Assembly: GCA_965263395.1 (NCBI GenBank)
Contig: OZ253670.1
Location: 1,387,958-1,451,957, forward strand
DNA length: 64,000 bases
From: Dehalococcoidia bacterium
GTDB taxonomy: Bacteria; Chloroflexota; Dehalococcoidia; Lucifugimonadales; UBA3495
Direction of reading: 5' to 3'
The stretch's first letter is position 1, and each line of letters opens with the position of its first letter. The notes beneath the pieces were generated by a model. It was not told where the DNA came from. It saw only the letters and a program-made list of their open reading frames with translations, and did not search any database. This document shows positions 7,443 through 60,999 of the stretch, piece after piece. Made by a program: the position numbers and the translations under genes.

Positions 7443-7683
7443 AGAGAGCCATTTAGGAGAAGACCCGGTACGCCTTGAGCGAATTTGCCCGCGCCGGGAC
7501 GCAAGTATGCGCTCCGGCGCACTGCACTGGCGCGGAGCTTTGGTTCACCGCCGGAGAATTCGTCCGAATCATATCGTTGAAGCGTGCGCTAAACAGGGGG
7601 AGTTTCAGGGGCCAATAGTGAATCACTGCCCCAGAGGACTATTGCCCCTCGGAAATTTGCAGCCCCCACTCCAGGAGCATCCC

Positions 7684-8538: not shown

Positions 8539-8648
8539 TTCTTGGCGTCGCTGGCTTCAACCGCTTGAGCGTTACTGACAGATGAGGGTTTCGCCTTGGC
8601 TTGGTTTAGGGTATTCTTTGCCGCAATAGATTACCCTGTGGGCGATTG

Positions 8649-12163: not shown

Positions 12164-12304
12164 GCGCCTCGAAGCGCTTCCTCGCTGACTCCTTGGGGGC
12201 CTCGATAGACTTCCCGGTTGATCGGCCCACCCGGAGCGGACCGGGGATGGTTCGGGTTTTCAACGTCTTTCGAGTCCCCCAAGACGAGCGGGTTCAACGG
12301 CCTA

Positions 12305-13512
12305 GTACTACTTCCAGATAGATTTACAAGAATATGAGAAGGCAGCCATACTTGGGTATGATCTTTCTGTGGGGGAGTATCCAGACATGGCTGCCATCAA
12401 GTATAAAGTCAAGCTGGCTGAATCCGAACGAGCCCGTCTCAATGAGGTTTCCCACCGGGGCAAGCTGTCAGTCCGCACCGTCAAGCGGGCGCTGGCGCTG
12501 CTCAAAGCAGATGAAGGACTACGGGACGGTGAGATAGCCGGTGTGCTTTTGATCAACGCGGCCACCGTTGCCAGAGTGCGGAAGCGGTTCGTCGAGGAAG
12601 GACTTGAGGCCGCCATCAATGACAAGCCACGGCCGGGCCGGGAGCGCAAGTTGGACGGCAAGCAGGAAGCGCACCTGGTTGCCATCGCGTGCAGCAGTCC
12701 ACCCGAAGGACATGTAAACTGGACGCTCCATCTGCTGGCGGACAAGGTGGTGGAGATGGAGTTTGCCGGGAGCATTTCCCTGGAGACGGTGCGCCAGATA
12801 CTCAAAAAAACGAACTCAAGCCGTGGCGGAAAAAGGAATGGTGCATCCCCAAGCTGAGCGGGGAGTTCGTCGCCCGGATGGAGGAAGCGCTGGACCTTTA
12901 TCACGAAGAGTACGACCTGGAGCGTCCGGTGGTGTGTTTTGACGAGTCCTCCAAGCAGTTGCTCGGGGATGTGCGGCCTCCCATTGAGGCCGCTCCTGGA
13001 CGGGTGGAGCGCTATGACACCGAGTACCAGCGGAACGGGACCCGGAATCTGTTCATGTTCTGTGAACCGAAGGGTGGGTGGAGGCACGTCGAGGTGACTG
13101 GGCGCCGGACTGCTGTGGACTTCGCTCAACAGATGAAGTGGCTGGTGGACGAGGCATATCCTGACGCCACAGAGATCCGGCTGGTGCTGGACAATCTCAA
13201 CACCCACAAGCTCGGCTCGCTCTACGAAGCGTTTGCACCGTCCGAGGCGCGCCGCATCGCCAAACGCCTGGAGCTTCACCACACACCCAATCACGGAAGC
13301 TGGCTGAACATGGCTGAAATCGAGTTCAGCGTCTTCAGCAGACAGTGTCTGAACCGCCGGGTCGGCGATGAAGCGTTGCTGAGACGGGAGGTCGCGGCGC
13401 TCGAACGCGAACGCAACGAGGCCGCCGCCATCATAGACTGGCGGTTCTCCACCCAGGACGCTCGCAGTAAGCTCAAACATATCTATCCAATAGATTTAAA
13501 TTGAAACGGTAC
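12305..13512 (+). mobile_element. IS630-family insertion sequence (boundaries +/-10 bp)
   Basis: About 1.2 kb, with GTAC at both termini and flanking TA dinucleotides (12303-12304 and 13513-13514), as expected for TA-targeting IS630/Tc1-mariner elements. The terminal inverted repeats are only imperfect. Confidence 0.65.
12387..13504 (+). CDS. IS630-family transposase, two frames joined by a -1 shift in an A7 run
   Basis: The HTH part (12387-12857 frame) reads ...VRQILKK. The DDE part (12689-13504 frame) continues NELKPWRKKEWCIP...VVCFDESS...VLDNLNTH...HHTPNHGSWLNMAEIEF. The frames meet at CTCAAAAAAAC (A7 at 12804-12810). Confidence 0.8.
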
Positions 13513-14726
13513 TAGACGGTCAACTCCAGGATGTACAGGCCGCCCTTGAGACGGTCCACCACGTACATGATGCCGTTCTCGTCAACATATACGTCGTTGA
13601 TGCCGGTGGAGGGCGCGCCCTCGGCAAGCTCCGGCACGAAGTAGGCCACCTCTTCCGGCTGGAAGGGATTGCTGGTGTCGAACACCCGGACGCCGCCGTT
13701 GAAGAAGGTGCCGTAAATCAGGGTATCCGAGAAGAAGCAGGTCGGCCCCGGCTGGTTCTCGTAGATGTTGTGCGCCCCGAACCGTCCCGGACGCTGGAAG
13801 AAGTCGTCGGTATCTCCCATCGGGAAGGTGCTGATGATGACCGGCTTGGTCTCGTCCCGAATGTCCATCATCCAAATCAGCTTGGGGTAGTCCTCGCCGT
13901 TCATCCGCACCGCCTCCTGCGTCACGACCATCAGGTCCCGGTTGAACAGGGGCAGCACGGTATGGGTAAAGCCGGGGAAGGGCGGCGCGTAGTTGATGTG
14001 GCTGATCATGGACGGGTTTGCCATGTCGGAAACGTCCAGAATGACCACGCCCGAGTCCATGTAGGCACAGTAGGCCCGGTCCGGCCGATCCGGGTAGACA
14101 TTGGCGTTGTGCAGCCGGTGCCCCGAGTCGAATTGGGGATGCCGGGCTACCGGCGGCGCGTCGTCGCCTTCCCTGACGCCGGGGAACCACCAGCGGCCCG
14201 CCTCGACGGGGTTGGTCGGGTCTGCCACATCTACAATCATGTAGAACTGGTCGTCTTTCTGGTCCCGTGGCTGGAAATCCGCCGCCCCGGTGGACAGGTG
14301 GGCGTACCTGCCCTCGACCCACCAGAGGCAGTGGCAGCCCCGGGAGTAGGGGCCGGAGGTATCCAGCCACCCGATGCGCCGCGGCTCTTCCACGTTGCTG
14401 ATGTCGTACACGCCCATGCCGCCGCCGGGCTGCCCCGGGTTCAGCGACTGGTAGGCCACCAGCATGGTGTCGTCAACAATGGACAGCGAGTTGGAGCGCA
14501 GGTGGGGGTAGGCCAGCTCGGTCTGGACCATAACTTTCGGGTTGGCGATGTCGGTCACGTCGACGCTGGTAATGTCCTTGGGCGCGCTTTCGTGGGCCAG
14601 GTAAAGGATGCGGCGGCCATCATTGGACTGGTGCAGGTGCATACCCTCGCCGATATTGCCGAACCCGTTGAGGCCGTGGTGGGAGATTAGCCGCATATTC
14701 CTGATTTCCTGTGTCTGCGTAACCAT
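13512..14726 (-). CDS. LVIVD-repeat beta-propeller protein
   Basis: Recurrent blades SVDVTDIANPKV, GVYDISNVEEPRRI, MIVDVADPTNPVEA, VVILDVSDMANPSMI, VRVFDTSNPFQPEEV and YVVDRLKGGLYILEL fit the LVIVD (COG5276) pattern. Confidence 0.7.
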   Translation of the reverse strand: MVTQTQEIRNMRLISHHGLNGFGNIGEGMHLHQSNDGRRILYLAHESAPKDITSVDVTDIANPKVMVQTELAYPHLRSNSLSIVDDTMLVAYQSLNPGQPGGGMGVYDISNVEEPRRIGWLDTSGPYSRGCHCLWWVEGRYAHLSTGAADFQPRDQKDDQFYMIVDVADPTNPVEAGRWWFPGVREGDDAPPVARHPQFDSGHRLHNANVYPDRPDRAYCAYMDSGVVILDVSDMANPSMISHINYAPPFPGFTHTVLPLFNRDLMVVTQEAVRMNGEDYPKLIWMMDIRDETKPVIISTFPMGDTDDFFQRPGRFGAHNIYENQPGPTCFFSDTLIYGTFFNGGVRVFDTSNPFQPEEVAYFVPELAEGAPSTGINDVYVDENGIMYVVDRLKGGLYILELTV

Positions 14727-14867: not shown

Positions 14868-16197
14868 CTGACAGGGGTATGTATGGACTGAAATTGGTCT
14901 GAGGGCTTGGAAAGCGCACGGGAATCCGGCATCTTGGTTGCAATGACGAAACCGGATGCCGGAGGTTTCCCATGCGCCTTCCCAAGGAATGCTGCCAGAT
15001 GCAGCAGGTCATTGAAACGCATTTGCCTCACCTCAGCCGGTCACAATTGGCCGGGCTGGTCTTGTGGGTGTGCGGGACTATCCTGGCCGGGAGCGCCTGC
15101 CAGAATGCCGTCGCCGCCGCTCTCTCCACCAAGGGAAACTGGGACAATCTGCGGCAGCGCCTTCGGGAATGGCTCTACGACGGCGGCGACCGGGCGCGTC
15201 CCTGCCAGACCGAACTGGATGTGAGTCTCTGCTTCGCGCCGTTGCTCAGGTGGGTCCTTGCGTGGTGGTGTTCTGACCGGCTGGCCTTGGCGGTTGACCC
15301 GACGTTGAAAGGGGACGACACCACCGCCATCGTCATCAGCGTGGTCTACCGGGGTTGCGCGATTCCCGTGGCCTGGCGCATCCTGCACGCCAACAAACCT
15401 GGGGCCTGGATGGACCCGATAGTGGAACTGTTGCAGGCGCTGGCCCCGGCGGTCCCAGAAGACATGACCGTGATTGTGCTGTGCGACCGGGGCCTGGCCA
15501 GTCCGAAATTGTGGAAACAGATACTCGCTCAGGGCTGGCATCCCTACATGAGGTATCCGAAAAACGTCACTTTCTGCGCTGAGGGCGGTCGGCGGCTGCC
15601 CGCGCGCGCCTTCGTTCCCCGTCCGGATACCGCGTGGATCGGGAGCGGGACGGCGTTCAGCAAGGCAACAGTAAAACGCCGTTGCACCCTGCTGGCGGTC
15701 TGGTACGTTGAACAGGAGGAGCCGTGGATCATCCTGACCGACCTTCCGCCGGACGAAGTTGGGGTGAGTTGGTACGCGCTCCGCTTCTGGATCGAGTTGG
15801 GGTTTAAGGCGGTCAAGAGCTTGGGTTGGCAATGGCAAAAGACCCGCAGGACTGACCCGGCGCGGATTTCGCGGCATTGGTTCGTGTTGTCGGTGGCGAC
15901 GCTGCTGACCCTGGCCTACGGGACCAGGGTGGAAGACGCCTATGACCGGAGGCTGGCCCCCGGCAGCTTGCGAGCGCCGCCCAGGGCGCTGGCGCCCACT
16001 CACCGCAGTAGCCGGGAGAAGCCGGGACGGACCGTCAGCGTAATCCGTTACGGCATTGCCTGGCTGAGGTGGTTGCTGCACCGGGGCCGGTTCTGGAGCC
16101 GGGTATGGCTGCTGCCCGAACCCTGGCCTGAACCCAAGTCCGACCTGGAGGTCACCCGCCATGCCCCTACATGAAACCCTATACATACCCCTGTCAG
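14868..16197 (+). mobile_element. IS4-family insertion sequence, copy 2 (1330 bp)
   Basis: Terminal repeats CTGACAGGGGTATGTAT (14868-14884, reverse complement at 16181-16197). 11-bp direct target duplication CCGTCTCCACG (14857-14867 and 16198-16208). Confidence 0.9.
14972..16174 (+). CDS. IS4-family DDE transposase
   Basis: 400 aa and collinear with ORF 3236-4444, carrying the same LAVDPT, LCDRGL and YALRFWIELGFKAVK motifs. Scattered substitutions and a 2-aa indel (ARPCQTELD versus ARPCPCKTELD). Confidence 0.9.
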   Translation: MRLPKECCQMQQVIETHLPHLSRSQLAGLVLWVCGTILAGSACQNAVAAALSTKGNWDNLRQRLREWLYDGGDRARPCQTELDVSLCFAPLLRWVLAWWCSDRLALAVDPTLKGDDTTAIVISVVYRGCAIPVAWRILHANKPGAWMDPIVELLQALAPAVPEDMTVIVLCDRGLASPKLWKQILAQGWHPYMRYPKNVTFCAEGGRRLPARAFVPRPDTAWIGSGTAFSKATVKRRCTLLAVWYVEQEEPWIILTDLPPDEVGVSWYALRFWIELGFKAVKSLGWQWQKTRRTDPARISRHWFVLSVATLLTLAYGTRVEDAYDRRLAPGSLRAPPRALAPTHRSSREKPGRTVSVIRYGIAWLRWLLHRGRFWSRVWLLPEPWPEPKSDLEVTRHAPT

Positions 16198-16307
16198 CCG
16201 TCTCCACGGGGGCAGGCCCTGCGCAGGCAGGAATCCACGGCAGTCTTGTCGGCAGCGGCGTTTGCTACCGCAGCGACGTATGGATTCCCGCTTTCGCGGG
16301 AAAGACG
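16198..16307. repeat. Family-2 palindromic REP-like element (left end at 14847-14867, split by IS copy 2)
   Basis: Reconstituted sequence is CGTCTTTCCCCCGTCTCCACGGGGGCAGGCCCTGCGCAGGCAGGAATCCACGG...CGTATGGATTCCCGCTTTCGCGGGAAAGACG. Same arms as the copies at 38680-38777 and 59365-59456. Confidence 0.8.
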
Positions 16308-16863
16308 AAGAGGGCGCACCGGCATGACCGAGGCGGTGTACTCCAGAATGATAGTTTTGCACAACGGACCGTAACTGTTCAGACTGGGGGATTTGAGCCA
16401 CGGGAGGCAGTTAAGCGCTAAAAAATAAAAAGTGGGGCATTTTGTGTCATTTTCTGTAATTTACGCTTGGCGATGGGGCGCTGACGGCGGGTCTTGGCGT
16501 CTTTTTGTCCCATTTGTGTGTCACCTTTGTGCCATTGTGAGCCGGTTTTGACGCACTTTGGGACGCTTGTCTTTCCGCCACAATCGCGATCGCAATTAAA
16601 TCCGGGAGCGGCCGGGGCCGGCAATTCCGGCGCAGGGGCCCGGCTCAGGATGATTGATGGTCATGGTAGGGTAGAGCTACCGGGCTTGGCAAGGGGCAGG
16701 TGTCAGCAGGGGCAATCAGGAAACCCTTGGTCTGAACAGTTACAACGGACCTGCGCCGGTTGACGGGGGCCGGTCGGCTGGGTACACTCGGCGCAACACC
16801 AAAATCCGACACCTTTTACCGCCGCTTTGTCCCGAAGTTGCGGCAGTTGAAGGAGAGGAATAT

Positions 16864-33362: not shown

Positions 33363-33956
33363 GTGTCTTCAGACGTGACTTATCCCGATGCCCAACCGCA
33401 AAACATCATCCTGGTTGGATTCATGGCCACGGGCAAGACTCAGGTGGGACGCCTGCTGTCCGACCGCACCGGCTGGCCGCTACGGGATGCCGACGATGAG
33501 ATTGTCCGCCGAGCCGGCCGACCCATTGATGACATCTTCGCCCGGGACGGCGAGGCGTCCTTCCGTGACTTGGAACGCCGGGTTATCGACGACCTTTGCG
33601 CCGGTTTCCGCCAGATAATTTCCGCCGGCGGGGGCGCCTTCATCCCGGCGGGAAACCGGGACTTGATGCTGCGCCGCGGGGTGGTGTTCTGCCTGTTGGC
33701 GACGCCGGAGACGATTTATTCCCGGGTGCTTGCGGAAGCCGATCCCGACCCCCCGGTGCGGCCGCTTTTGGCAGGAGCCGACCCCTTGCAGCGCATTCAG
33801 GAGTTGCTGGACAGCCGGGCCGAAGCCTACTCCCACGCCCACCACACCATCCCCACCGACGCCCTGACGGTAGCGGAAGTGGCCGCCCGGGTAATGGCCC
33901 GCTGGGAAGAAGCTAGTGTCCCCTTGGAGGACTCCAATGGAGGTGGACTAAGTTGA
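33363..33956 (+). CDS. aroK: shikimate kinase
   Basis: Walker A NIILVGFMATGKTQVGRLLS, then DADDEI and ISAGGGAF. Confidence 0.85.
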   Translation: MSSDVTYPDAQPQNIILVGFMATGKTQVGRLLSDRTGWPLRDADDEIVRRAGRPIDDIFARDGEASFRDLERRVIDDLCAGFRQIISAGGGAFIPAGNRDLMLRRGVVFCLLATPETIYSRVLAEADPDPPVRPLLAGADPLQRIQELLDSRAEAYSHAHHTIPTDALTVAEVAARVMARWEEASVPLEDSNGGGLS

Positions 33957-35482
33957 TCTTCCACCGTTGGCGGCCAATCGAACCCCCCGGAAAGGAAATT
34001 GAGCAGTACGATTTCAGCGAAATTGACTCGTTGCAGCGGCAATGGTTAAACGTAAAGCGGGATAAAGAAGCGGCCAACCCCAACGCTTACCAACCGTTTC
34101 TCGAACGTCTGGAGCGCCGTTGGGCTATTGAGACCGGGATTATCGAAGGCATCTACGACATCAGCCGGGGGGTGACTCAAACTTTGGTTGAGAACGGTCT
34201 CGCGGCCGACCTGATTGAAGCCGGGTCCACCAATCGGGACCCGCAAGAACTAATCAAGGTGTTGAGAGACCATCAGAATGCGGCCGAGTTTGTGACCGAA
34301 AGTATCCGTCGGCAGACTCCATTTTCCAAGCATTACATCAGGGAACTGCACCAAATCTTGACCCGAAACCAGCCCACTTATACTGCGGTGGACCAATTCG
34401 GGACCGTGTTTGAGACCACACTGGACCGTGGCGGCTTCAAGGTTCTGCCCAACAACCCCACCAGACGCGACGGGGCGGTCCATGAGTATTGCCCTCCCGT
34501 CCAGGTGGACAGTGAACTGGACAACCTGGTTTACTTTTACGAGGAATCCGGCAAGGCGAGGGACGACTTTCATCCGCTGTTGGTTGGAGCCTGGCTGCAC
34601 CACGCATTTACCCAGATTCACCCCTTCCAGGACGGAAACGGCCGGGTAGCGCGGGCGATTCTGACCTGGCATCTGGTCAAAGAAGGATACTGGCCCATCG
34701 TCGTTTCCAGGGATGACCGCGAACACTACATCACGTGCCTCGAACAAGCCGATGCGGGCAACTTGACGCCCTTCGTCGAATTCTTGGTTCAACAAGAGAA
34801 GCAGACTATCTTGCAGGCCCTTAGCGAACCTGAATCTGCCCCCGCATTGCAGGCATTCGACCAAGTCCTCGACCACCTGGTCCAGGGCATCCATCGAAAA
34901 CAGTGTGCCCAGGAAGAACAACTCCGTGCGGTCAACCACGTAGCAGAATACCTCCAAAGCGCAGTAAGGTACTATTTGGCTGATCGTCATGAACAAATAA
35001 GCCGTCGATTGGGTGAGGCCGGTATGGTTATCCAACCATCTATAAGTGCTGGAGGCCCATACGATGGAAGGGAACACTGGTACGGACGAGAGGTAAACAC
35101 AACCGCACAAAATGCCGGTCATTGGGCATCTTCAAACGAAGCGCGTTATTTTGCGGCCCTATTGCTGCGGGGTTCTGCAGATAACCCCGCCAATGCCCGT
35201 TTGCCCGTTCTTCGCTTCGTGGTTTCTCTGCACCATGTCGGTAAGGAACTCTCAGGCGTAATGGCAGCCACGGCATTTGCCCGGATCGAGAGACCTCAGG
35301 GAACAGCGGATGATGACGAAGTAGGAGCGAAGTCTGGCGAACTTCACTTCCACGATTGCACCGTTAGCCCGTTCACCTTCACAAACGATGAATCCGATGA
35401 TGCCATACGGCCTCGGTTCACCCGATGGGTCGAAGAACACCTAACAATCGCGTTAACGAAATGGGGAGAGTATTTAACATGA
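33953..35482 (+). CDS. Fic-family protein (class II, internal inhibitory motif) with ~200-aa uncharacterised C-terminal region
   Basis: Fic motif HPFQDGNGRVARAIL (34619 onward). N-terminal TGIIEG (34133-34150) fits the (S/T)xxxE(G/N) inhibitory-helix motif. TTG start overlaps the aroK stop (TTGA). Visibly AT-richer than the flanks. Confidence 0.85.
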   Translation: MIFHRWRPIEPPGKEIEQYDFSEIDSLQRQWLNVKRDKEAANPNAYQPFLERLERRWAIETGIIEGIYDISRGVTQTLVENGLAADLIEAGSTNRDPQELIKVLRDHQNAAEFVTESIRRQTPFSKHYIRELHQILTRNQPTYTAVDQFGTVFETTLDRGGFKVLPNNPTRRDGAVHEYCPPVQVDSELDNLVYFYEESGKARDDFHPLLVGAWLHHAFTQIHPFQDGNGRVARAILTWHLVKEGYWPIVVSRDDREHYITCLEQADAGNLTPFVEFLVQQEKQTILQALSEPESAPALQAFDQVLDHLVQGIHRKQCAQEEQLRAVNHVAEYLQSAVRYYLADRHEQISRRLGEAGMVIQPSISAGGPYDGREHWYGREVNTTAQNAGHWASSNEARYFAALLLRGSADNPANARLPVLRFVVSLHHVGKELSGVMAATAFARIERPQGTADDDEVGAKSGELHFHDCTVSPFTFTNDESDDAIRPRFTRWVEEHLTIALTKWGEYLT

Positions 35483-51801: not shown

Positions 51802-52425
51802 TTGACGGCAGGAGCGATTGCAGAGGGCATTGTGAGAAAGAAAACTTACCAAATTGACCGGGTCCTGGAGCAGCACTGGGCCGAGCAGGATGCCGCCCTG
51901 GGCTTGGATCGGGTACTGGACCGGCAAAAAAAGGCGCAGCAAGCTGCCGCTGAGTTGGACCGGACACTGGAACAACAACTGAAAGCGTCGCTGTCCGGCG
52001 ATCTGAGCAGGAGCCTGGAACAACAAAAAAATGAATTGGCGGCCGCCGGCGGCCTCGGCCAAATCATACAGCAGCACCAGGACGCCCTGGCGGCTTTCGC
52101 CGAGGCAGGCCAGGAACTGAAACGATACAAAGATACCCTGGAAGCCGCCGGAGGCCTGGAGCGGATTTGGGAGCGGCACCAGATATTCATGGCCGCCGCC
52201 CGGGAGTTCAGCCCCCTCTTCACCATCGAACCGGGCAAGCGCAGCGGGCAACCCTGCCTCCGTCGCATACGCATGACAATCTACGACGTGCTGGAATACC
52301 AGACGTCGGGAATGACCGATGCGGAAATACTCCACGAGTTCTCCAACCTGACCCAGGAAGACCTGGACGTTTGCTGGGCCTTCGGGACCTACATGGAAGA
52401 GCGCTTCAAGTCCATCGAATCCTGA
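51802..52425 (+). CDS. DUF433 antitoxin-like protein with long coiled-coil N-terminal extension
   Basis: C-terminus GKRSGQPCLRRIRMTIYDVLEYQTSGMTDAEILHEFSNLTQEDLDVCWAF is DUF433. It is preceded by about 130 aa of repetitive LEQ/LDR-rich helix. Start uncertain. Confidence 0.7.
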   Translation: MTAGAIAEGIVRKKTYQIDRVLEQHWAEQDAALGLDRVLDRQKKAQQAAAELDRTLEQQLKASLSGDLSRSLEQQKNELAAAGGLGQIIQQHQDALAAFAEAGQELKRYKDTLEAAGGLERIWERHQIFMAAAREFSPLFTIEPGKRSGQPCLRRIRMTIYDVLEYQTSGMTDAEILHEFSNLTQEDLDVCWAFGTYMEERFKSIES

Positions 52426-52757
52426 TGAAGCTGCTCTTCGACCAGAACCTGTCGCCGGACTTGCCGCGACTGCTGGAAGACCTTTTCCCTGAATCGCTCC
52501 ACGTCATCGGCATCGAATTGGATGCAATCGAGGATGGCATTATTTTGGCCTACGCCAAAGCCCACGACTTCATCGTAGCGACAAAGGATAAGGATTACCG
52601 AGAATTAAGCAGGATTTTGGGACCGCTGCCGAAAGTCATCCTGATTACCTCGGGCAATGGCCCCACCTCGGACGTGGCGTCGCTGCTGCGGGAACGCCAC
52701 GCTGAGGTGATTGCTCTGCAACAAGACGACGGACGGGGATTGCTGGAATTGCCCTGA
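52425..52757 (+). CDS. DUF5615 (PIN-like, COG4634) toxin-like protein
   Basis: ATG overlaps the DUF433 stop (TGATG). MKLLFDQNLSPDLPRLLEDLFPESLHV...DGIILAYAKAHDFIVATKDKDY fits the DUF5615 pattern. Confidence 0.75.
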   Translation: MKLLFDQNLSPDLPRLLEDLFPESLHVIGIELDAIEDGIILAYAKAHDFIVATKDKDYRELSRILGPLPKVILITSGNGPTSDVASLLRERHAEVIALQQDDGRGLLELP

Positions 52758-53067: not shown

Positions 53068-53907
53068 GTGATGCTCCTTTCCGACTGGGGGCTGCCGTCT
53101 GAGCTGGCTGTATGGCTGGCGGCGCTGCTGCTGGCGTTGTCGTTCGGCATCGGCCTGCTGGGCGGAATGATCGGCTTATCTCTGGGCACCATGAGGCTGC
53201 CGGCGATGCTGCTGCTCGGGGTGCCGCTGCCGCTCGCCGCCAGCGCAAATATCCTGGTCAGCAGCCTGACCGCCATTTCGGGCAGTTATCGTCACCTGCG
53301 CGACGGCCGGGTAAAATTCCCCATCGTCCTGGCCGTGGGCCTGCCGGCTTTTGCCGCCGGATTCCTGGGAGGTTTCTTCAGTGGCCGCGCCCCGGTAAAC
53401 CTGCTTATCGGAATAGCCGGTGTCCTGATTCTGTGGCAAGCCGCCGAGCTGCTCCTGCTGGCAAAACGCCGGATCCGTGGCGGCGAGCGCGCATCGGACG
53501 ACGAATTAACCGGGTCTGAGGGCCATTTCACGGCGGCCCGCCTTATCGGCGGCAGCAGCGCCAGCTTCGGAATCGGCCTGTTGGCTGGGGCCATCGGCCT
53601 GGTGCTGGGTTCCGTTCGGCTGCCGTTGTTGATACGCATATTGCGGGTGGACCCGCGCATAGCCGCCGGCTCCAACCTGTTCATCGGCATGGCCATGGGC
53701 GCGCTGGGCTGGGTGGGGCACTTGTTCAATAGCCCGCCCGACCTGGCGCTCCTGCTGATATTGGGTTTGCCTGCCCTGGTTGGCAGCTACCTGGGCGCCA
53801 GGCTGACCGGCCGCATCAGCGTTAACGCCCTCCTATTGCTGATGGGGGCACTGCTGACGGGTTCGGGAATAATGATGCTGTGGCGGGCCGCCAGCGCGCT
53901 GTTCTAA
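53068..53907 (+). CDS. TauE/SafE-family sulfite-exporter-like membrane protein
   Basis: About 8 TM helices with an internal duplication (GIGLLGGMIGLSLGTMRLP and GIGLLAGAIGLVLGSVRLP) typical of TauE/SafE. Confidence 0.75.
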   Translation: MMLLSDWGLPSELAVWLAALLLALSFGIGLLGGMIGLSLGTMRLPAMLLLGVPLPLAASANILVSSLTAISGSYRHLRDGRVKFPIVLAVGLPAFAAGFLGGFFSGRAPVNLLIGIAGVLILWQAAELLLLAKRRIRGGERASDDELTGSEGHFTAARLIGGSSASFGIGLLAGAIGLVLGSVRLPLLIRILRVDPRIAAGSNLFIGMAMGALGWVGHLFNSPPDLALLLILGLPALVGSYLGARLTGRISVNALLLLMGALLTGSGIMMLWRAASALF

Positions 53908-54538: not shown

Positions 54539-55738
54539 CTACGATTGCGCTGATTCGCGGGCGGCCAGCCACTTTTCCTTTTGACGGCGGCGGGTATCCT
54601 CGTCGGTGGGCCGGTATTCGGCCCAGAAGGACCGGCGAAACTGCTCGAACCGGTCCTGCAAGATGGCCTCCCGCGCCGCCTGCATCAGCCGGAAGATGAA
54701 CCGCAGGTTGTGGACGCTGGCCAGCCGCAGCCCCAACACTTCCCGCGCCTTGAACAGGTGCCACAGATAAGCCGCGGTGAAGTTCTGACAGGCGTAGCAG
54801 TCGCAGTCCGTCTCCAGGGGGGCATCCCAATCAGCGAACCGCCGGTTGGTGATGTTGACCCGTCCCTGCCGCGTGAACAGCGCCCCGTTGCGGGCCACCC
54901 GGGTGGGCAGAACGCAGTCGCACATATCCACGCCCGCGGCCACTGCTTCCACCAGGTCTTCCGGCGAGCCGACTCCCATCAGGTAGCGGGGTTTGCCGGC
55001 GGGCAGCAGGGCGGCCACCTGCTCCGTCATCTCATACATCTGGGCCTTGGACTCGCCCACCGCCAGCCCGCCTATGGCGCAGCCGTCGAAGGGAATGGAC
55101 GTGATGAACTCGGCCGACTCGGCCCGCAGGTCGGGGAAGGTGCCGCCCTGAACGATGCCGAACAACGCCTGGGAAGCGGCCGTGTCCGATGCGGCGTGGG
55201 TCTCGTAGCACTCCCCGGCCCAGCGGTGGGTGCGGTCCATGGCCCGGGTTATCTCGCCCCGCTCGGCCCCGAAGGCGATGCACTGGTCGAGGCACATGAT
55301 GATGTCTGCGCCCAGCCCTTCCTGGTTTTGCGTCGCCAGCCGGGGCGTGAACCGGTGCTCGCTGCCGTCAACGTGGGAGCGGAAGCTGATGCCGTCGTCG
55401 TCCACCTGCTTCAGCGAACCCATACTGAACGCCTGAAACCCGCCGCTGTCGGTGAGGATGGGACGGTCCCAGCCCATGAAGCGGTGCAGGCCGCCCAGCC
55501 GCTCCACCATGGCCACGCCGGGCCGCAGGTAAAGGTGGTAGGCGTTGCTCAGCACGATGTCTGCCCCCACTGCCGCCACTTCTTCGGGCGTCAGCGTCTT
55601 GACGGTGGCCTGAGTCGCCACCGGCATAAACGCCGGGGTTGCCACCGTCCCGTGGGGAGTGCTGAGCTCCCCGGCCCGGGCGGCGGTCCCGCCGTTGTCC
55701 TGGTGGTGCAGCTTGAAGGAAAATTCAGGTTCGGTCAT
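54539..55738 (-). CDS. tgt: tRNA-guanine transglycosylase (queuine tRNA-ribosyltransferase)
   Basis: LTDSGGFQ, GGLAVGE, DCVLPTRVARNG and the zinc site CDCYAC...H. Confidence 0.92.
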   Translation of the reverse strand: MTEPEFSFKLHHQDNGGTAARAGELSTPHGTVATPAFMPVATQATVKTLTPEEVAAVGADIVLSNAYHLYLRPGVAMVERLGGLHRFMGWDRPILTDSGGFQAFSMGSLKQVDDDGISFRSHVDGSEHRFTPRLATQNQEGLGADIIMCLDQCIAFGAERGEITRAMDRTHRWAGECYETHAASDTAASQALFGIVQGGTFPDLRAESAEFITSIPFDGCAIGGLAVGESKAQMYEMTEQVAALLPAGKPRYLMGVGSPEDLVEAVAAGVDMCDCVLPTRVARNGALFTRQGRVNITNRRFADWDAPLETDCDCYACQNFTAAYLWHLFKAREVLGLRLASVHNLRFIFRLMQAAREAILQDRFEQFRRSFWAEYRPTDEDTRRRQKEKWLAARESAQS

Positions 55739-55739
55739 A

Positions 55740-56339
55740 TTATTCCATGATTAGTTTGACTGATATTGCTTTCAACCGTGGAATGGTTACGAAGTTACCA
55801 AATATCGCCGAGTAAGTTTCCAGCCCTACCGATTCTCCGATGAACTCTATTTTGTCATCTTCCAACAAACGCTCTCCTTTGTAATCTGCCAAGTAAACAA
55901 CTTCATCTTCGGTCCAATCGTCGCCCAAGGTGACACGAAAATCGTAGCCATCATCCAAGATATGCTCCATTACCTGAACTACCGTTCCTTCAAAATAGAA
56001 GACTTGGGATTCGTATTTTTCGTTATACCTGAACAATTCTTTGTAGTCGATTGTTTTGGCACTGTCTTTGAGTTGGGCGAGTGTCGGGGTTGGAGTCGGT
56101 ATTGAGGTTGGAGTTGATACAATAGCAACATCCACATCATCTCCAACAATTGCTCCCAAGATTACCAGAACTATGAAAATTCCGAATAAACTACCGCCGA
56201 TAATAGAACCCCACTTCAGAAACCCTTTATGAGAAGTATGGGGCTTGGTTCTATTGATTGGGTTACCGCACTGGGTGCAAAAACTTGCACCTGCGCTTAT
56301 TCTGTTACCACACTGAGTACAATAGCTTATAATAGACAT
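55740..56339 (-). CDS. zinc-ribbon single-pass membrane protein
   Basis: N-terminal double CxxC (YCTQCGNRISAGASFCTQCGNPI), TM helix IIGGSLFGIFIVLVILGAIV, and a ~120-aa extracytoplasmic beta-rich domain. Strongly AT-rich. Its stop lies 1 nt from the tgt start. Confidence 0.65.
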   Translation of the reverse strand: MSIISYCTQCGNRISAGASFCTQCGNPINRTKPHTSHKGFLKWGSIIGGSLFGIFIVLVILGAIVGDDVDVAIVSTPTSIPTPTPTLAQLKDSAKTIDYKELFRYNEKYESQVFYFEGTVVQVMEHILDDGYDFRVTLGDDWTEDEVVYLADYKGERLLEDDKIEFIGESVGLETYSAIFGNFVTIPRLKAISVKLIME

Positions 56340-56508
56340 ATTGGTTACTTTCCTCTACGACTGTTGCCTTCAGCGGAATCAGGACGAACGGATTAAGTAA
56401 CTAACCGTGGGAGATCCCCCCACGTTTTACTGGCATACGGAACCAAGAATATGCAATACGCCTGATTTGAAAATTACGGTTCACAAGGCGTATCAGGTTG
56501 CAGGATTT

Positions 56509-58044
56509 CTAGGAGTCACGATTGAGCCTCTGTATAGACCCGGGATAGTCGATAAACGGCTGGCTGCCTCGAACAACAAAAAATATCTGTTGTTCAATCT
56601 TCGACAGATTACCTTCATGATACACGTCTTCCTTGATTTCACGGTCCCTTTCGCCAATTAGATGATCTGCCAGTCTCTCTCCCCATTTGGCTCCTTTGCT
56701 CAGCTTGAATTGCTCCGCATGTTTGTGCAGAACATCGTTGAACGCCTTCTGAAATCCTACCTGTTTGTCACTGATACGCTCCTTTATTTCTTGTACCAAG
56801 GTATCTTGATCTAAGGTTACGGGTTGAGACAAGTCTGATGCCCAAGCCACAGCAACTGCTACCAATTGCTCCACCTTGAAATTCTTAAGCTCAAAATCCG
56901 GGTCATTCAAGACACAGGGTAAATTGACGAGCCCATCTTGTTCCAGTTTTTCCGCACGTGTACGTACTTGGGGTGAATCGCTATCAAACGTCAAGGTCAC
57001 GAAGCATTGTTCCTCTCTGGCGGTATTAAGGGCAGCGTCCAGATCTGGACGCTGTTTTCCTAATGCTCCTTCTCCACCAAAATTTCTGATAGTAACAAAT
57101 TCTAAGGCACTCGATCCAATCGCCTTCGCGTATTCGAGAATAAATCCTTCTTCGGTTGCACCCTCTACAAGCCACAGCACCCTAAATGCAGGGTCAAGCC
57201 CATAATGTCGAACCACCGGCCTCAAGAATCCGGGGGAGCCGAACTTCGGTTGGCTTCCAAAGTTCCGCTCGACCCAAATCGTATCTGGATGCCCAGTGGG
57301 GTCCCATTCCTTGGTCACCGGGTTGTCAGAAACCTGCTCCAGGCACATCCTAGTAATCTCAGCTAGTTCATACAAATCGTGAGCTAATCTAAGCCGTCCC
57401 TTGAATTTGCTTCGTTGTGCGAAAGGCATTGACCTAAGGAGGAGGTATAAGTCTGGAGTCGGGTCAATAGTTGATGTGCCAAAGAGCAAGTCACTTCTCC
57501 ATTCGGTTAGACGCTCAACTGAGATTGAATGCTTATCAAGCCAGTCTTGGATTTTGGTTTCCTCTTTCCACCTCATCCAACTGTCGGGATCGTCGCTTGC
57601 ATAATTAACAACGCCGGGTCGTGGCCCCCGCACGGTTGGCAAAAAGTATGGTTCCAACCATAGCAAAAGTGGTAGGAATTGTTGATTGAATTCTCGGCAG
57701 GCGCCGCTTTTTGGCCAGTCAGTCAAATGCTGCGCACAATAGGACCAATTCTGGTCAATGAATTCCTTCAACCTTGCCGGCTCAAGTCCGCAAAAATTGA
57801 TTCCGGAATCAATTCTGGTCTCTAAACCGCGACATGACATTCTTATTGGCCAGATCTGGAAGGGATGAAAGTCTCCGAGTTCAGTATCAAGTTTTTCAAT
57901 TAACCCAGCATCTACAAATGCCCGAACTCCTTCAACCCCTACATTCAAATCGCGATCCCGCAGAAAAGTGTTAAACTGGCGCTCGGACATGAAAGGGATT
58001 TGATGAAAAAGTCTGTTTGTTACTGCCTCTTCAATGAGAGTCAT
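56509..58044 (-). CDS. hypothetical protein: novel N-terminal region fused to a Toprim-like (RloB/DUF4276/OLD-type) C-terminal domain
   Basis: VLWLVEGATEEGFILEYA (Toprim Glu), TLTFDSDSP (DxD) and NDPDFELKNF (resembles the SNPcFElW motif of RloB-like proteins). The first ~290 aa are unassigned. Strongly AT-rich. ATG 58044 lies 2 nt after the stop of the upstream TauE-like gene; alternative start at 58083. Confidence 0.6.
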   Translation of the reverse strand: MTLIEEAVTNRLFHQIPFMSERQFNTFLRDRDLNVGVEGVRAFVDAGLIEKLDTELGDFHPFQIWPIRMSCRGLETRIDSGINFCGLEPARLKEFIDQNWSYCAQHLTDWPKSGACREFNQQFLPLLLWLEPYFLPTVRGPRPGVVNYASDDPDSWMRWKEETKIQDWLDKHSISVERLTEWRSDLLFGTSTIDPTPDLYLLLRSMPFAQRSKFKGRLRLAHDLYELAEITRMCLEQVSDNPVTKEWDPTGHPDTIWVERNFGSQPKFGSPGFLRPVVRHYGLDPAFRVLWLVEGATEEGFILEYAKAIGSSALEFVTIRNFGGEGALGKQRPDLDAALNTAREEQCFVTLTFDSDSPQVRTRAEKLEQDGLVNLPCVLNDPDFELKNFKVEQLVAVAVAWASDLSQPVTLDQDTLVQEIKERISDKQVGFQKAFNDVLHKHAEQFKLSKGAKWGERLADHLIGERDREIKEDVYHEGNLSKIEQQIFFVVRGSQPFIDYPGSIQRLNRDS

Positions 58045-58046
58045 TT

Positions 58047-59120
58047 TTACCTCAAAATTTTCCTGACTCCAGGCAGGCCCCATACCCTAAGGCGAGCCCG
58101 CGCCAGCAGTGCGGCGATTACCAGGCACATGGTCCCGGATACGCCCAGCAGCACGTAGGCGGCGATGTCTCCCAGGAATTCCAGGCCGGGCAGGGTGGCG
58201 GCTGCCTGCTCCAACGCCACCGCCGCGCAGCCGCTGAGCACCGTAATCCCGTACAGGATGCGGATTCGTCCGGCGTCCACGAACCGGGTGGCCGTGGCGC
58301 CAATCTGCGAACCCACCGAGGCCGCCCCCAGAATGATTATCGCCATCAGCGGGTCAACCCGGTTGCCCAGCGCGTAGAAGAAGGTTCCCACCGAGCCGGT
58401 GATGATGACCTGGAACAGGTCGGTGCCGATGGCGACGGTGGTTGGTATGCCCACTACGAACACCAGCACCGGCATCAGGATGAAGCCGCCGCCGGCCCCG
58501 AGCAGTCCGGCAAAGAAGCCGATGCCGAATCCCACCAGTACCGGGATGAAAACGGATATGCGGTCGATGCCCGACACGGGCAGGGCGATGTAGGTGGACC
58601 GAGCCGACAGTCCCGGCAGGTTTATCGAGTGGGGGGGAATCCGCAGCGACTGTACCCGCCGGGCCAGCCGCGCCGTGGACACCGCTTCGCCTTCCGCATT
58701 CCCGGCGGCGCGGCGCCGGGTCTTGATGTAGTCGTACACCAGGAAGCACCCCAGTATCAGCAGCACGGCGACGTAGACATAACGGATGACCGGCCCGGCC
58801 AGACCCGCCGCTGCCAGGGCGCTGTTCAGCCGCTCGGCTAGGAACACCGCCGGAATGGTGCCGCACACCATCAGGCTCCCCAGCTTGAAGTCCACGTTGC
58901 CCAAGCCCCGGTGCTTGAGCATATTGATAATGGACGAACCCATTATCAGGGTCAGGCCGGTGCCGACGGCGAAGATGGGCGGCACCCCGAACACCAGCAG
59001 TCCTCCGGTAATCAGGAAGCCGCCGCCCACGCCGAAGAACCCGCCCAGGGTTCCGACAATCACTCCCAGCAGCGCCAGCAGAACCGGATTCACCACCACG
59101 TCGGCGTTGGGAAAGAGCAT
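58047..59120 (-). CDS. TauE/SafE-family membrane protein
   Basis: Start taken at ATG 59120 (MLFPNADVVVNPVLLALLGVIVGTLGGFFGVGGGFLITGG). The motif recurs at GFFAGLLGAGGGFILMPVLV. The track's 212-aa N-terminal extension runs through repeat DNA. Confidence 0.8.
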   Translation of the reverse strand: MLFPNADVVVNPVLLALLGVIVGTLGGFFGVGGGFLITGGLLVFGVPPIFAVGTGLTLIMGSSIINMLKHRGLGNVDFKLGSLMVCGTIPAVFLAERLNSALAAAGLAGPVIRYVYVAVLLILGCFLVYDYIKTRRRAAGNAEGEAVSTARLARRVQSLRIPPHSINLPGLSARSTYIALPVSGIDRISVFIPVLVGFGIGFFAGLLGAGGGFILMPVLVFVVGIPTTVAIGTDLFQVIITGSVGTFFYALGNRVDPLMAIIILGAASVGSQIGATATRFVDAGRIRILYGITVLSGCAAVALEQAAATLPGLEFLGDIAAYVLLGVSGTMCLVIAALLARARLRVWGLPGVRKILR

Positions 59121-59122
59121 AT

Positions 59123-59323
59123 CTATCCCTGCCGCTCCTGCCCGCTGCCGTTCCGGTTCCGCGAGCCGCCGGAGAAGGCCAGGGCCAAGCCCCGCAGCGC
59201 CAACTCCCAGAACCAGTACAGGACCAGGCCGGTCGAGGCAATGACCACCATGACCAGCAGGGACCACAGCAAGGGAGACTCGGCGCTGAAAGTCTTGAAG
59301 AAGTGGGCCAGCGATTCGTACAT
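59123..59323 (-). CDS. small membrane protein, translationally coupled to the TauE-like gene
   Basis: 66 aa with TM helix [22 protein letters not shown]. Its stop lies 2 nt before the TauE-like start. Confidence 0.45.
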
Positions 59324-59364
59324 TTACCCAGTATAACCCACAGGAGCGGAGGGAACAGGCACCC

Positions 59365-59456
59365 CGTCTTTCCCGCGCAGGCAGGACGGCGTTTTGGCAA
59401 AGGAACGCTGTCCTTTCCTGGCGATTTCCTGGATTCCTGCCTGCGCAGGAAAGACG
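59365..59456. repeat. Family-2 palindromic REP-like element
   Basis: CGTCTTTCCCGCGCAGGCAGGACGG...CTGGATTCCTGCCTGCGCAGGAAAGACG. Confidence 0.8.
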
Positions 59457-59540
59457 AAGAGGGTGTAGGAGTGATGAGGAAGGCTCCAGATTGACGGTAA
59501 AACCAACACAACTACGGGATACCTGCGCCCCGGGTTTTCC

Positions 59541-59588
59541 ATTCTCCCCTCTCCCCGCAGGAGATGGGCCGGGGGTGAGGGCGTTCCC
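59541..59588. repeat. Family-1 half-element
   Basis: ATTCTCCCCTCTCCCCGCAGGAGATGGGCCGGGGGTGAGGGCGTTCCC. Confidence 0.75.
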
Positions 59589-59754
59589 GCAGTTTTTGAC
59601 TGGCCAAATCGCCGGGGTTATACTGGTACGGTTGCCGCGACCCCCTGCTTGGGCCACCCCCCTGCGGGCCTTCCCCGGCTTGACGACCCCGCCGCAACCT
59701 TCGTCTTTACGGCGAATTTGCTTACAACCCAGTTTTTTGCAACCAGGAGTATCC

Positions 59755-60999
59755 ATGCCCTTCTTGAAGGACCAAGACCCGGATGTCGCCCGGGCTATTG
59801 AGCAAGAGAACGACCGCCAGCGGGACAGCGTGGTCCTGATTGCTTCGGAGAACTACGCCAGCCGGGCGGTGCTGGAAGCCCAGTCCGGCGTGATGAACAA
59901 TAAGTACGCCGAAGGCTACCCCGGCCGCCGCTACTACGGCGGATGCGAGTTCGTCGACGTGGTGGAACAGTTGGCCATCGACCGGGTGAAGCAGCTCTTC
60001 GGCGCCGAACACGCCAACGTGCAGGCCCACAGCGGCGCCCAGGCCAATATGTCGGTCTACTTCGCCCTGCTGGAACCCGGCGACACCGTTATGGGGATGC
60101 AATTGGACCAGGGCGGCCACCTGACCCACGGCGCATCGGTCAACTTCTCGGGCAAGCTGTACAATTTCGTCCCCTACGGCGTGGACCGGGACACCGAGAC
60201 CATTGACTATGACGAGGTGGAGCGGCTGGCCAAGGAATGTCAACCCAAGCTGATTGTCGCCGGATGCAGCGCCTACGCCCGGGTAATTGACTTCCCGCGC
60301 TTCCGGGCCATCGCCGACGAAGTGGGCGCGATGCTGATGGTGGACATGGCCCACATCGCCGGTCTTATCGCCGGCGGCGCGCATCCGTCGCCCTTCCCTC
60401 ATGCCCACGTCGTGACCTCCACGACGCAGAAGACCCTGCGCGGACCCCGGGGCGGGTTGGCGCTGTCCCAGGAAGACCTGGCCCGCAAGATAGACTTTGC
60501 CGTGTTCCCCTTCATGCAGGGCGGGCCGTTCATGCACGTCATCGCCGCCAAGGCGGTCTGCTTTGGCGAGGCGCTGCATCCCGATTATGCCCGGTACGCG
60601 GCCCAGGTGGTGGCCAACGCCCAGGCCATGGCCCGGGAGCTTTCCGAAGCCGGTCTGCGGCTGGTGTCCGGCGGCACCGACAACCATCTGCTGCTGGTGG
60701 ACCTGACCCCGCTGGGCCTCACCGGCCGCGAGGTGGAGGTTGCCATGGAAAACGTGGGAATCAGCGCCAACAAGAACGCCATACCCTTCGACCCCAAGCC
60801 GCCCCGGGTCACCAGCGGCCTGCGGCTGGGGACTCCGGCCATCACCAGCCGGGGTTTCAAGGAAGAGGATTCCCAGCGGGTGGCCCAGTTGATTCTCCGG
60901 CTCGTGACCAACATGGGCGACGATTCGGTCAAGAAAGAGGTTGCGGACGGCGTAAAGGAGCTAACCGCCAACTTCCCGGTGCCTGGGTTGGACCTGTAG
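59755..60999 (+). CDS. glyA: serine hydroxymethyltransferase
   Basis: [23 protein letters not shown], and PLP-lysine region [15 protein letters not shown]. Start at ATG 59755. Confidence 0.92.

Follow-up and report, generated by a model that had tools for sequence, protein, structure and literature searches.

How does a 2.3-kb piece of strongly AT-rich DNA come to lie between the genes for a TauE/SafE-family permease and the tRNA-guanine transglycosylase Tgt, and what might the two genes that it carries do? We addressed this question for a locus in a 64-kb stretch of DNA, referred to as the window. The larger of the two genes (gene 1) encodes a Toprim protein and the smaller (gene 2) a membrane protein; their coordinates and those of their domains are collected in Table 1.

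Table 1 Features of the TauE-tgt locus, with positions in the window
Feature	Position	Strand	Basis or remark
Tgt, tRNA-guanine transglycosylase, downstream flank	54539..55738	-	TIGR00430, E 6.4e-149
AT-rich foreign segment	55713..58061	.	G+C 0.457, z = -6.3, tetranucleotide outlier; missing from the L005/L029 TauE-tgt junctions
Gene 2, 199-aa membrane protein	55740..56339	-	zinc ribbon, TM helix, Pro/Thr linker, OB-like domain
AT-rich spacer, 169 nt, two hairpins	56340..56508	-	G+C 0.456; MFE -47 kcal/mol, z = -2.2
Gene 1, putative ATPase-less OLD-like Toprim protein, 511 aa	56509..58044	-	homologues and AF2 model, pLDDT 85.5
Gene 1, C-terminal helical bundle, residues ~391-495	56560..56874	-	five helices after the Toprim core (AF2)
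K450 codon, in helical bundle	56695-56697	-	conserved in 54/67 diverse members
Gene 1, Toprim core, residues ~289-390	56875..57180	-	strand order, motif positions, 6nk8 alignment
E385 codon	56890-56892	-	Toprim residue
D356 codon	56977-56979	-	Toprim residue
D354 codon	56983-56985	-	Toprim residue
G324			key Toprim residue
E298 codon	57151-57153	-	Toprim residue
E294 codon	57163-57165	-	Toprim residue
Gene 1, all-helical N-terminal domain, residues 1-288	57181..58044	-	model pLDDT 93.3, pTM 0.90
TauE/SafE-family permease, upstream flank	58047..59120	-	PF01925, E 5.5e-37

Foreign DNA at the TauE-tgt junction

The G+C content of the region from 55740 to 58044 is 45.7% versus 61.7 ± 2.5% elsewhere (mean 0.617 and sd 0.025 from 25 equally sized windows without overlap), which is within 0.001 of the minimum found for any 2305-nt window in the 64 kb (0.456, start 55720). 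The tetranucleotide distance, too, reaches its maximum for the window in this region. Borders placed by maximum likelihood at 55713 and 58061 are 27 and 17 nt off the gene ends, and the final few codons and the stop codon of TauE already lie within AT-rich DNA. Because GC3 is only 0.47 in gene 1 and 0.43 in gene 2, far below the 0.87 of tgt, the compositional difference resides in codon usage; overall, the G+C content of gene 1 is 0.47 and that of gene 2, adjacent and on the same strand, 0.42. Both junctions are tight: the TauE stop codon TAA (58049-58047) is followed after 2 nt by the ATG of gene 1 at 58044, and the gene 2 stop codon TAA (55742-55740) after 1 nt by the ATG of tgt at 55738.

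Two syntenic, distant relatives (L005 and L029) keep the gene order TauE-tgt-gamma-CA and carry neither gene 1 nor gene 2 at the TauE-tgt junction, where the TauE stop codon overlaps the tgt start codon as ATGA. Because this empty site with its ATGA overlap is found in two syntenic relatives, the AT-rich segment is an insertion. TauE of the window is 75.5% identical to its counterparts in L005 and L029 as far as residue 335, beyond which the tails diverge, and Tgt is 72-78% identical to Tgt of Dehalococcoidia/SAR202. We conclude that the 2.3-kb AT-rich piece is foreign DNA that splits two normally overlapping housekeeping genes. No integrase was found at the island, no tRNA or tmRNA attachment site (0) in the whole 64 kb, and no Rfam family between 54 and 60 kb at E ≤ 0.1; searches for terminal direct or inverted repeats and for a target-site duplication around the island returned short matches at chance level, none of them significant. 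An earlier, sequence-only reading of this DNA had proposed a foreign insert between TauE and tgt, with an abrupt drop in G+C at the gene boundaries, the gene ends placed as above, and no visible integrase or att repeat, and our data agree with it in all these respects, including the assignment of the two flanking genes. We read the segment (~55713-58061) as horizontally acquired DNA with two unrelated genes as cargo, inserted exactly at the junction of the translationally coupled TauE-tgt pair in a Dehalococcoidia-type Chloroflexota genome.

The two halves of the gene 1 protein

The start codon assigned to gene 1 (ATG at 58044, giving 511 aa) is consistent with the N-termini of 40 homologues. 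Close homologues number 98, all of them full length and with 37-63% identity, and in an exhaustive search the family comprises ~950 clusters at 50% identity, the members of which are named "hypothetical" in every case where the source supplies a name. A scan of JGI metagenomes added a single locus. Neither gene 1 nor gene 2 was matched by the PADLOC models, and the same holds for the family members. A phage origin of gene 1 was considered and rejected, relatives being absent from IMG/VR, GenBank phages and PHROGs.

In the AF2 model of the protein, strands at residues 289-293, 317-321, 348-354 and 378-380 with flanking helices form a four-stranded parallel Toprim core, in which the motif Glu follows β1, the Gly follows β2 and the DxD follows β3. 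When the model was compared with the PDB by Foldseek, the top four matches were the C-terminal regions of Class 2 OLD proteins (6nk8, 6njv, 6njw and 6njx; probability 0.99-1.0, TM to target 0.42-0.48), with 219-247 aligned columns that cover the Toprim and helical domains; GajA and retron Eco8 entries came after these four, mixed with unrelated folds. Foldseek also matched DnaG-Toprim and RloB, and the top BFVD match was an RloB-like protein. In sequence comparisons, the close-family profile matched none of the PDB sequences, and OLD was reached only by the broader family profile (A2), which matched 6nk8_A with an E of 0.009 over a 39-residue stretch and aligned VEGxTE of the gene 1 family with VEGDAE (E400/E404) of 6nk8. 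The window protein did not match OLD-like_TOPRIM (PF20469), 25 of the 41 close members did so weakly (best E 2.6e-4), and the distant members P0128, P0131 and P0117 exceeded the cutoff of 23.2 bits, at 27.1, 24.6 and 23.8; a precomputed PF20469 assignment is present on many relatives. With DUF4276 (PF14103), the window protein scored 16.4 bits versus a cutoff of 30.2 and matched profile positions 1-81 of 192 only.

We assessed conservation in 41 close-family members and 67 diverse members of the broad family. E294 is present in all members of both samples, D354 in 67/67 and E298 in 66/67 diverse members, while G324 does not vary within the close family and is found in 62/67 of the broad family, and E385 in 60/67. 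The motif D-x-[DE], which reads D354-S-D356 in the window protein, occurs in 51/67 broad-family members and in only 10/41 of the close subfamily, where position +1 or +2 is acidic in 36/41. D383-F-E385 and K450 have the order and secondary-structure positions expected for OLD. The corresponding set in Bp OLD consists of E400, E404, D455, D457, T506, E508 and K562 (PMC6755086). The conserved residues of gene 1 appear to match this set, with K450 as the likely equivalent of K562; for E385 and K450, the equivalences are based on order, spacing and the Foldseek superposition. As far as the profiles and the model indicate, the C-terminal half of gene 1 is an OLD-type catalytic region composed of a Toprim core and a helical bundle.

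Foldseek of the N-terminal domain alone against the PDB gave a best E of 1.5, with weak hints of GntR/MerR winged helices only, and residues 1-288 contain no AAA/ABC or other Pfam match. The Walker A motif is found in 0/41 close and 0/67 diverse members, while H60 and D194 are invariant in the 67 diverse members. Moreover, no partner ATPase gene adjoins gene 1 in the window or in L001-L003, L085-L092, L095 and L096. Based on these sequence and model comparisons, the gene 1 family would retain the cutting half of OLD and have the ATPase motor replaced by a novel helical domain. The sequence-only reading anticipated much of this, i.e. a Toprim domain of the OLD/RloB/DUF4276 kind (supported by the Foldseek probability of 1.0, the 6nk8 alignment, PF20469 in distant members and the conserved acidic residues), an unassignable N-terminal region of ~290 aa and the missing partner ATPase; the fusion that it described is not a local event, the architecture being fixed across the ~950-cluster family.

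Gene neighborhoods and rival explanations

Gene 1 homologues are solo genes in 15/15 loci. All-against-all blastp of 16 neighboring proteins returned only two local paralogue pairs, and there is thus no conserved neighbor that could be a shared partner. In 7 of the 8 loci measured, the G+C content drops sharply by 10-20 points within the confines of the gene; the exception is L084, in which the whole contig is AT-rich (difference 0.02). An ICE-like element that encodes a coupling protein, a relaxase and a serine recombinase carries some of the homologues, and one identical protein with differing flanks lies within an element equipped with an integrase and DDE transposases. The defence-type neighbors include Eco57I-like RM with PIN/Phd, HsdR with Mrr and helicase-PLD, GmrSD with DEAD/DUF559 and PIN, and PIN/MazE; homologues are often found next to restriction, toxin-antitoxin or GmrSD genes of this kind or within integrative elements. 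These neighborhoods amount to about ten loci and do not represent a statistical enrichment, and the immediate neighbors of the window copy are housekeeping rather than defence genes.

From these neighborhoods we infer a role in defence, and our working hypothesis, which we hold to be moderately probable, is that the insert was horizontally acquired and that gene 1 is a single-gene, ATPase-less OLD-like defence nuclease of which gene 2 is not a partner. Specifically, gene 1 would encode a single-polypeptide nuclease with a predicted two-metal site, in which E294, D354 and D356 would hold metal A and E298, D383 and E385 metal B, with K450 in addition. The novel 288-residue helical domain would stand in place of the ABC ATPase, the regulator in every OLD class described so far, as a sensor or autoinhibitory module and would keep the nuclease off until a signal from an invading element is received. 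Upon this signal, the Toprim site would cut nucleic acid (DNA, by analogy with Class 1/2 OLD, or tRNA, by analogy with AriB) and thereby bring about defence or abortive infection.

Alternatively, gene 1 could be a toxin, addiction or exclusion nuclease that serves its carrier elements, e.g. in their stabilization or in competition with rival elements, rather than the host against phages, with the window copy as a stranded remnant. The occurrence of homologues as cargo in ICE-like and transposon-rich elements and near TA modules would fit such a role; however, no small antitoxin-like gene is conserved next to gene 1, and the window copy has an intact ORF and the full set of catalytic residues. 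We consider this explanation unlikely while giving it some weight, and because it overlaps with a defence role the two are hard to separate by sequence alone.

We also considered that gene 1 is a selfish, self-spreading nuclease gene, i.e. a Toprim analogue of a free-standing homing endonuclease that would cut sites without the gene and then be copied into them by repair as a bare gene without a carrier element. This would explain why AT-rich islets the size of the gene lie at unrelated sites in GC-rich Chloroflexota without integrase or repeats, and it is consistent with the near identity of islet and gene in the window, L001-L003 and L086, with the insertion precisely between two overlapping genes with spacers of 1-2 nt, with the winged-helix hints, albeit weak, in the N-terminus of a predicted nuclease, and with the failure to find an integrase, tRNA or repeats. 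By contrast, other members travel as ordinary cargo of elements that themselves encode an integrase or relaxase, no motif is shared among the 300-nt flanks of eight homologue loci, the family is missing from viral contigs and phage genomes, the islet in the window also carries an unrelated second gene, and Toprim is, to our knowledge, not among the known homing-endonuclease folds. Altogether, we regard homing as improbable.

Gene 2 bears on a further possibility. As the earlier reading had recognized, its product has a zinc ribbon (residues 6-27; PF13240, E 6.8e-8) and one TM helix (~44-66, KD 2.7); a Pro/Thr linker and a C-terminal OB-like domain (~86-197; phrog_5319, E 5.7e-12) follow, and in its homologues the latter weakly matches tRNA_anti-like OB. 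Only 11 homologues were found, and their N-termini vary (zinc ribbon, CD225 or none). In the spacer between the two genes, the GC-rich hairpin at 56406-56424 has no U tail on the coding strand, and the spacer has no Rfam match. The sequence-only reading joined genes 1 and 2 into a defence or conflict cassette, for example of a membrane sensor and a nuclease effector, and their adjacency, shared strand, similar AT-richness (0.47 and 0.42) and joint absence from the empty sites of L005 and L029 would be in line with this. However, a gene 2 homologue is found in 0/15 gene 1 loci and, by tblastn and six-frame HMM search, a gene 1 homologue in 0/2 gene 2 loci; moreover, the contig sizes of the two homologue sets do not overlap, the genes are parted by the 169-nt hairpin-bearing spacer, and gene 2 relatives stand alone inside housekeeping operons. 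A 441-aa protein beside the gene 2 homologue in L093 was considered as a hidden gene 1 relative and rejected: it proved to be a membrane protein with a Pro/Thr linker and no relation to gene 1. Because the two genes do not co-occur in any of the 17 relevant loci, the cassette is unsupported and, at the level of sequence comparison, largely refuted; we consider it highly improbable. We rather suggest that gene 2 may encode an independent membrane-anchored OB-like protein of the prophage-moron type.

Finally, the idea that gene 1 is a native housekeeping enzyme for RNA or DNA processing (RNase M5-like or repair) that happens to be AT-rich is scarcely credible: the Toprim active site is common to RNase M5 and DnaG (PMC6755086) and the family is under clear purifying selection, but its positions are non-syntenic across loci, it is missing at the syntenic site of relatives, its codon usage is foreign, members turn up in mobile elements and no NCBIfam or Pfam housekeeping family matches it.

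Returning to our working hypothesis, the gene 1 family is probably a large unstudied family of defence nucleases. Should it act in defence, it would constitute a new single-gene class and a natural experiment in the gating of a Toprim nuclease without nucleotide hydrolysis. The TauE-tgt locus itself is a clean case of foreign DNA in a translationally coupled gene pair with spacers of 1-2 nt, and such an insert would escape genome-island finders that are keyed to integrases, tRNAs and repeats.

Relation to known systems

What defines OLD-family nucleases is an ABC ATPase that is linked to, or encoded beside, a Toprim nuclease, and control of the nuclease is generally ascribed to this ATPase. 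With OLD proteins of Class 1 (P2 Old, Thermus scotoductus OLD) and Class 2 (GajA of Gabija; Burkholderia pseudomallei and Xanthomonas OLD, PDB 6nk8 and 6njv), gene 1 shares a Toprim core with a helical bundle behind it, as well as the E-x3-E pair and the first DxD Asp; it probably also shares the acidic residue that opens the first helix after the core and the conserved Lys of the bundle. Like Class 1 OLD, it is a single gene. Unlike OLD, it has no N-terminal ABC ATPase/dimerization domain and instead carries the 288-residue helical domain without a PDB match; no UvrD-like GajB adjoins it as in Gabija, and at the sequence level it resembles OLD only marginally (E 0.009 over 39 residues).

A Toprim domain that is OLD-related and not fused to an ATPase is also found in PARIS AriB (DUF4435 Toprim), RloB/AbiLii and DUF4276 proteins (Mad4; Menshen NsnC variants), and gene 1 gives weak DUF4276 and RloB-like matches. 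Toprim effectors of these types have a defence-associated role (PMC12065111). Effectors of the AriB/RloB/DUF4276 type are ~200-350 aa in size and require an ABC ATPase encoded next to them (AriA, RloA/AbiLi or NsnB), whereas gene 1 has no such ATPase gene beside it in the loci examined, possesses a large N-terminal domain of its own and has no PADLOC match. In retrons, Toprim effectors (the Class 3 OLD of retron Eco8, which is among the Foldseek matches, and the RT-Toprim fusion of retron Eco2) are fused or coupled to a different sensing module, a build that gene 1 would share; in contrast to retrons, no RT or ncRNA adjoins gene 1 (Rfam returned nothing) and its N-terminal domain is not an RT.

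Gene 2, in turn, has the same C-terminal domain as the phrog_5319, phrog_26308 and tRNA_anti-like (PF12869) proteins, and with zinc-ribbon- or CD225-anchored OB-like proteins it shares a modular build of anchor, linker and OB-like domain in which the N-terminal anchor is the part that varies among relatives.

Insertion of an AT-rich island between TauE and tgt

The island at 55740-58044 has a G+C content of 45.7% against a mean of 61.7% (sd 2.5; z = -6.3) in 25 non-overlapping windows of equal size from the rest of the 64 kb, and lies within 0.1 point of the lowest 2305-nt window of the 64 kb (45.6%, start 55720). A two-state likelihood fit placed its edges at 55713 and 58061, bearing out the abrupt drop at gene boundaries described in the sequence-only reading, and its tetranucleotide profile is the most deviant in the window. 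G+C at third codon positions is 0.47 in gene 1 (the OLD-like Toprim protein) and 0.43 in gene 2 (the zinc-ribbon membrane protein) against 0.87 in tgt; therefore, codon usage differs and not amino-acid content. The gene ends agree with those read earlier: the TauE stop TAA (58049-58047) is followed by two bases and the gene 1 ATG at 58044, a start backed by homologue N-termini, and the gene 2 stop TAA (55742-55740) by one base and the tgt ATG at 55738. Profile matches identify the flanking products as a TauE/SafE permease (PF01925, E 5.5e-37) and Tgt (TIGR00430, E 6.4e-149).

When species-representative genomes were searched with Tgt, relatives with 55-78% identity came from Dehalococcoidia, SAR202 and other Chloroflexota. 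Two of them, L005 (OZ253548) and L029 (SAR202 bin22), keep the gene order of the window; their TauE is 75.5% identical, their Tgt 72-75% and their gamma-carbonic-anhydrase-like hexapeptide protein 86-93%. Both have an empty site, TauE directly adjoining tgt with stop and start overlapping as ATGA. Homology of the window TauE to these proteins stops ~22 residues short of its stop codon, its final codons and stop lie inside AT-rich DNA, and homology restarts at the tgt ATG. Therefore, the window has foreign DNA at a junction where the two coupled genes elsewhere overlap by 4 nt, and the island is an insertion between TauE and tgt. As first noticed from the sequence, neither integrase nor att repeat is evident: no integrase lies inside the island and repeats around it do not exceed chance; no tRNA was found in the window.

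In four other related tgt loci (L004, L007, L010 and L011), the TauE gene adjoins tgt on the opposite strand, and the co-directional overlap is therefore specific to the sub-lineage of the window, L005 and L029. A TauE/SafE paralogue also lies on the other side of the tgt region (PF01925, E 3.2e-32). The mechanical ORF for the flanking TauE is over-long, the conserved protein beginning near 59120. Conflict-type genes also occur in four milder AT-rich dips elsewhere in the window (0.50-0.57 G+C); small foreign islets that lack integrases seem to accumulate in the source genome.

Coordinates of features in the window and in loci with homologues
Sequence	Feature	Coordinates	Strand	Product
Window	Gene 1	56509-58044	-	511 aa
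Window	Gene 2	55740-56339	-	199 aa
Window	TauE/SafE paralogue	53068-53907	+	
Window	TauE/SafE, flanking	58047-59120	-	
Window	TauE mechanical ORF	58047-59756		569 aa
Window	Milder dip	4685-5848	-	DUF3800 protein
Window	Milder dip	8646-9944	+	HD/HD_assoc_2 protein
Window	Milder dip	33953-35482	+	Fic/DOC protein
Window	Milder dip	51802-52757	+	DUF433 + DUF5615 (PIN-like) pair
L001	Gene beside homologue	9547-9750	-	
L001	Gene beside homologue	11630-12529	-	
L002	Large paralogue	12683-14092		
L002	Large paralogue	14888-16543		
L087	Recurrent block	~2600-9100		
L093	Gene 2 relative insertion	4521-7023		
L094	Gene 2 relative insertion	6001-6732		

Predicted catalytic half and helical half of gene 1

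A word-indexed search gave 98 clusters of full-length gene 1 homologues (37-63% identity), none of which (0/98) has a precomputed Pfam domain; the two with a source name, from Chloroflexota or unclassified bacterial MAGs, are labelled hypothetical. An exhaustive profile search returned 950 representatives at E <= 1e-3 (581 at E <= 1e-10), and because many of these (520-640 aa) match profile positions ~57-465, both halves are common to them. Every named distant member is called hypothetical, and searches of IMG/VR contigs, GenBank phages, PHROGs and PADLOC found no member of the family.

The best four PDB matches to the full-length AF2 model (pLDDT 85.5) are C-terminal catalytic regions of Class 2 OLD proteins (6nk8, 6njv, 6njw and 6njx; probability 0.99-1.0, TM to target 0.42-0.48), with GajA and retron Eco8 entries lower in the list, and among viral structures an RloB-like protein matches best. 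At the sequence level, a profile built from 67 diverse members also matches 6nk8_A (E 0.009), aligning the family VEGxTE with VEGDAE (E400, E404), which upholds the Toprim domain of the RloB/DUF4276/OLD kind recognized earlier. Pfam OLD-like_TOPRIM matches weakly in 25/41 close members and above threshold in distant ones. The Bp OLD active site comprises E400, D455 and D457 (metal A), E404, T506 and E508 (metal B), plus K562 (Schiltz et al. 2019, PMC6755086). Family residues match this set in order and secondary-structure position, the Toprim acidic residues are conserved among homologues, and the window protein carries all eight tabulated residues. The alignment shows E294 and E298 as the counterparts of E400 and E404, and we infer that E385 and K450 correspond to E508 and K562.

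Conservation of gene 1 residues over 67 diverse members
Residue	Members	Proposed Bp OLD equivalent or role
E294	67/67	E400
E298	66/67	E404
G324	62/67	Toprim Gly after beta2
D354	67/67	D455
D356 (D-x-[DE])	51/67	D457
D383 (D-F-E385)	D in 47/67	T506
E385	60/67	E508
K450	54/67	K562

Modelled alone, residues 1-288 (pLDDT 93.3, pTM 0.90) are all helix except for two short bridges. The best match in a PDB fold search reached only E 1.5, in keeping with the earlier view of this region as unassignable; small winged-helix regulators (GntR, MerR) recur at a probability of 0.1-0.3, which may hint at a winged-helix likeness. A Walker A motif is lacking in every member. Two residues, H60 and D194, do not vary over the broad family and may point to a functional site.

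Genomic setting of gene 1 and gene 2 homologues

Among 15 loci with a gene 1 homologue, composition was measured in eight, the window included. In seven of these eight, no stretch is more AT-rich than the homologue (gene G+C against flank: window, 0.47 and 0.62; L001 and L002, each 0.46 and 0.59; L003, 0.52 and 0.68; L085, 0.50 and 0.64; L086, 0.47 and 0.67; L087, 0.50 and 0.60); L084 (0.47 and 0.49) is an exception to the gene-confined dip because its entire contig is AT-rich. Neighbours vary from locus to locus, with no conserved partner gene beside the homologues and no shared sequence motif in the flanks. Defence-type genes are present in L086 (Eco57I-like enzyme and PIN/Phd module), L003 (PIN/MazE), L095 (HsdR, Mrr and a helicase-PLD protein) and L096 (GmrSD, DEAD/DUF559 helicase and PIN). 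The context is mobile in L085, an ICE-like element with coupling protein, relaxase and large serine recombinase, and in L087-L092, where a block with an identical homologue (P0051), a LexA-like repressor and a 415-aa uncharacterized protein recurs, twice within one sample. Because its outer flanks differ and include a tyrosine integrase, DDE transposases and an RE_SacI fragment, this block looks like an active mobile element. One distant relative lies on an Ideonella megaplasmid, adjoining an IS3 transposase, an integrase and a DGR.

In L001, the genes either side of the homologue, within the same AT-rich island, have a common 67-residue N-terminal region (51% identity), which may reflect either duplication or a gene disrupted where the insert lies. 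Downstream of the L002 homologue lie two large paralogues of unassigned function that share 70% identity over 463 residues.

On the evidence of its fold, its conserved catalytic residues, its occurrence as a solo gene and its neighbourhoods, gene 1 is best read as a putative single-polypeptide OLD-like nuclease that would act in conflict with invading genetic elements. The weightiest alternative is that such a nuclease serves the mobile elements that carry it. Next in weight, a self-propagating homing-type gene would account for the gene-sized islets, but this explanation is weakened by the occurrence of homologues as cargo and by the lack of a shared target.

Gene 2 combines a zinc ribbon (PF13240, E 6.8e-8), a single TM helix, a Pro/Thr linker and a C-terminal domain that matches phage protein families (phrog_5319, E 5.7e-12) and, in relatives, weakly a tRNA_anti-like OB fold. 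The source genome as publicly annotated has just a 131-aa C-terminal product (P0099), omitting the zinc ribbon and TM helix, both backed by homologues and by a 199-aa ENA call (P0293). The 11 homologues found differ at their N-termini (zinc ribbon, CD225 or none). Relatives in L093 and L094 are AT-rich insertions in amino-acid biosynthesis operons (leuA-leuC and serA-apbA), with very short spacers, and no gene 1 relative is near them; the L093 relative has a further Pro/Thr-linker membrane protein next to it. The 169-nt spacer between genes 1 and 2 has two hairpins (z = -2.2) and no Rfam match. The sequence-only reading had proposed a two-gene defence or conflict cassette; none of the loci examined has homologues of both genes, which are therefore independent cargo, adjacent here by chance, and the cassette is rejected on co-occurrence. 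A housekeeping role for gene 1, the weakest alternative, is rejected on distribution and composition.

Proposed role of gene 1 and comparison with OLD proteins

We propose that the gene 1 product, a putative OLD-like nuclease, would act against invading genetic elements, and that its novel helical domain would stand in for the ATPase as a regulatory or sensing module. The family is sizeable and uncharacterized and comes with a clear testable hypothesis, its function being read from sequence and context alone. Its catalytic module appears to be shared with OLD/RloB/DUF4276 nucleases, an already known kind; the ATPase-less architecture with its PDB-unmatched domain has no description in the consulted papers on OLD and Menshen and no PADLOC model. 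With a helical N-terminus and no Walker A motif, the gene 1 family therefore lacks the ATPase that defines OLD proteins but keeps a predicted counterpart of their nuclease half.
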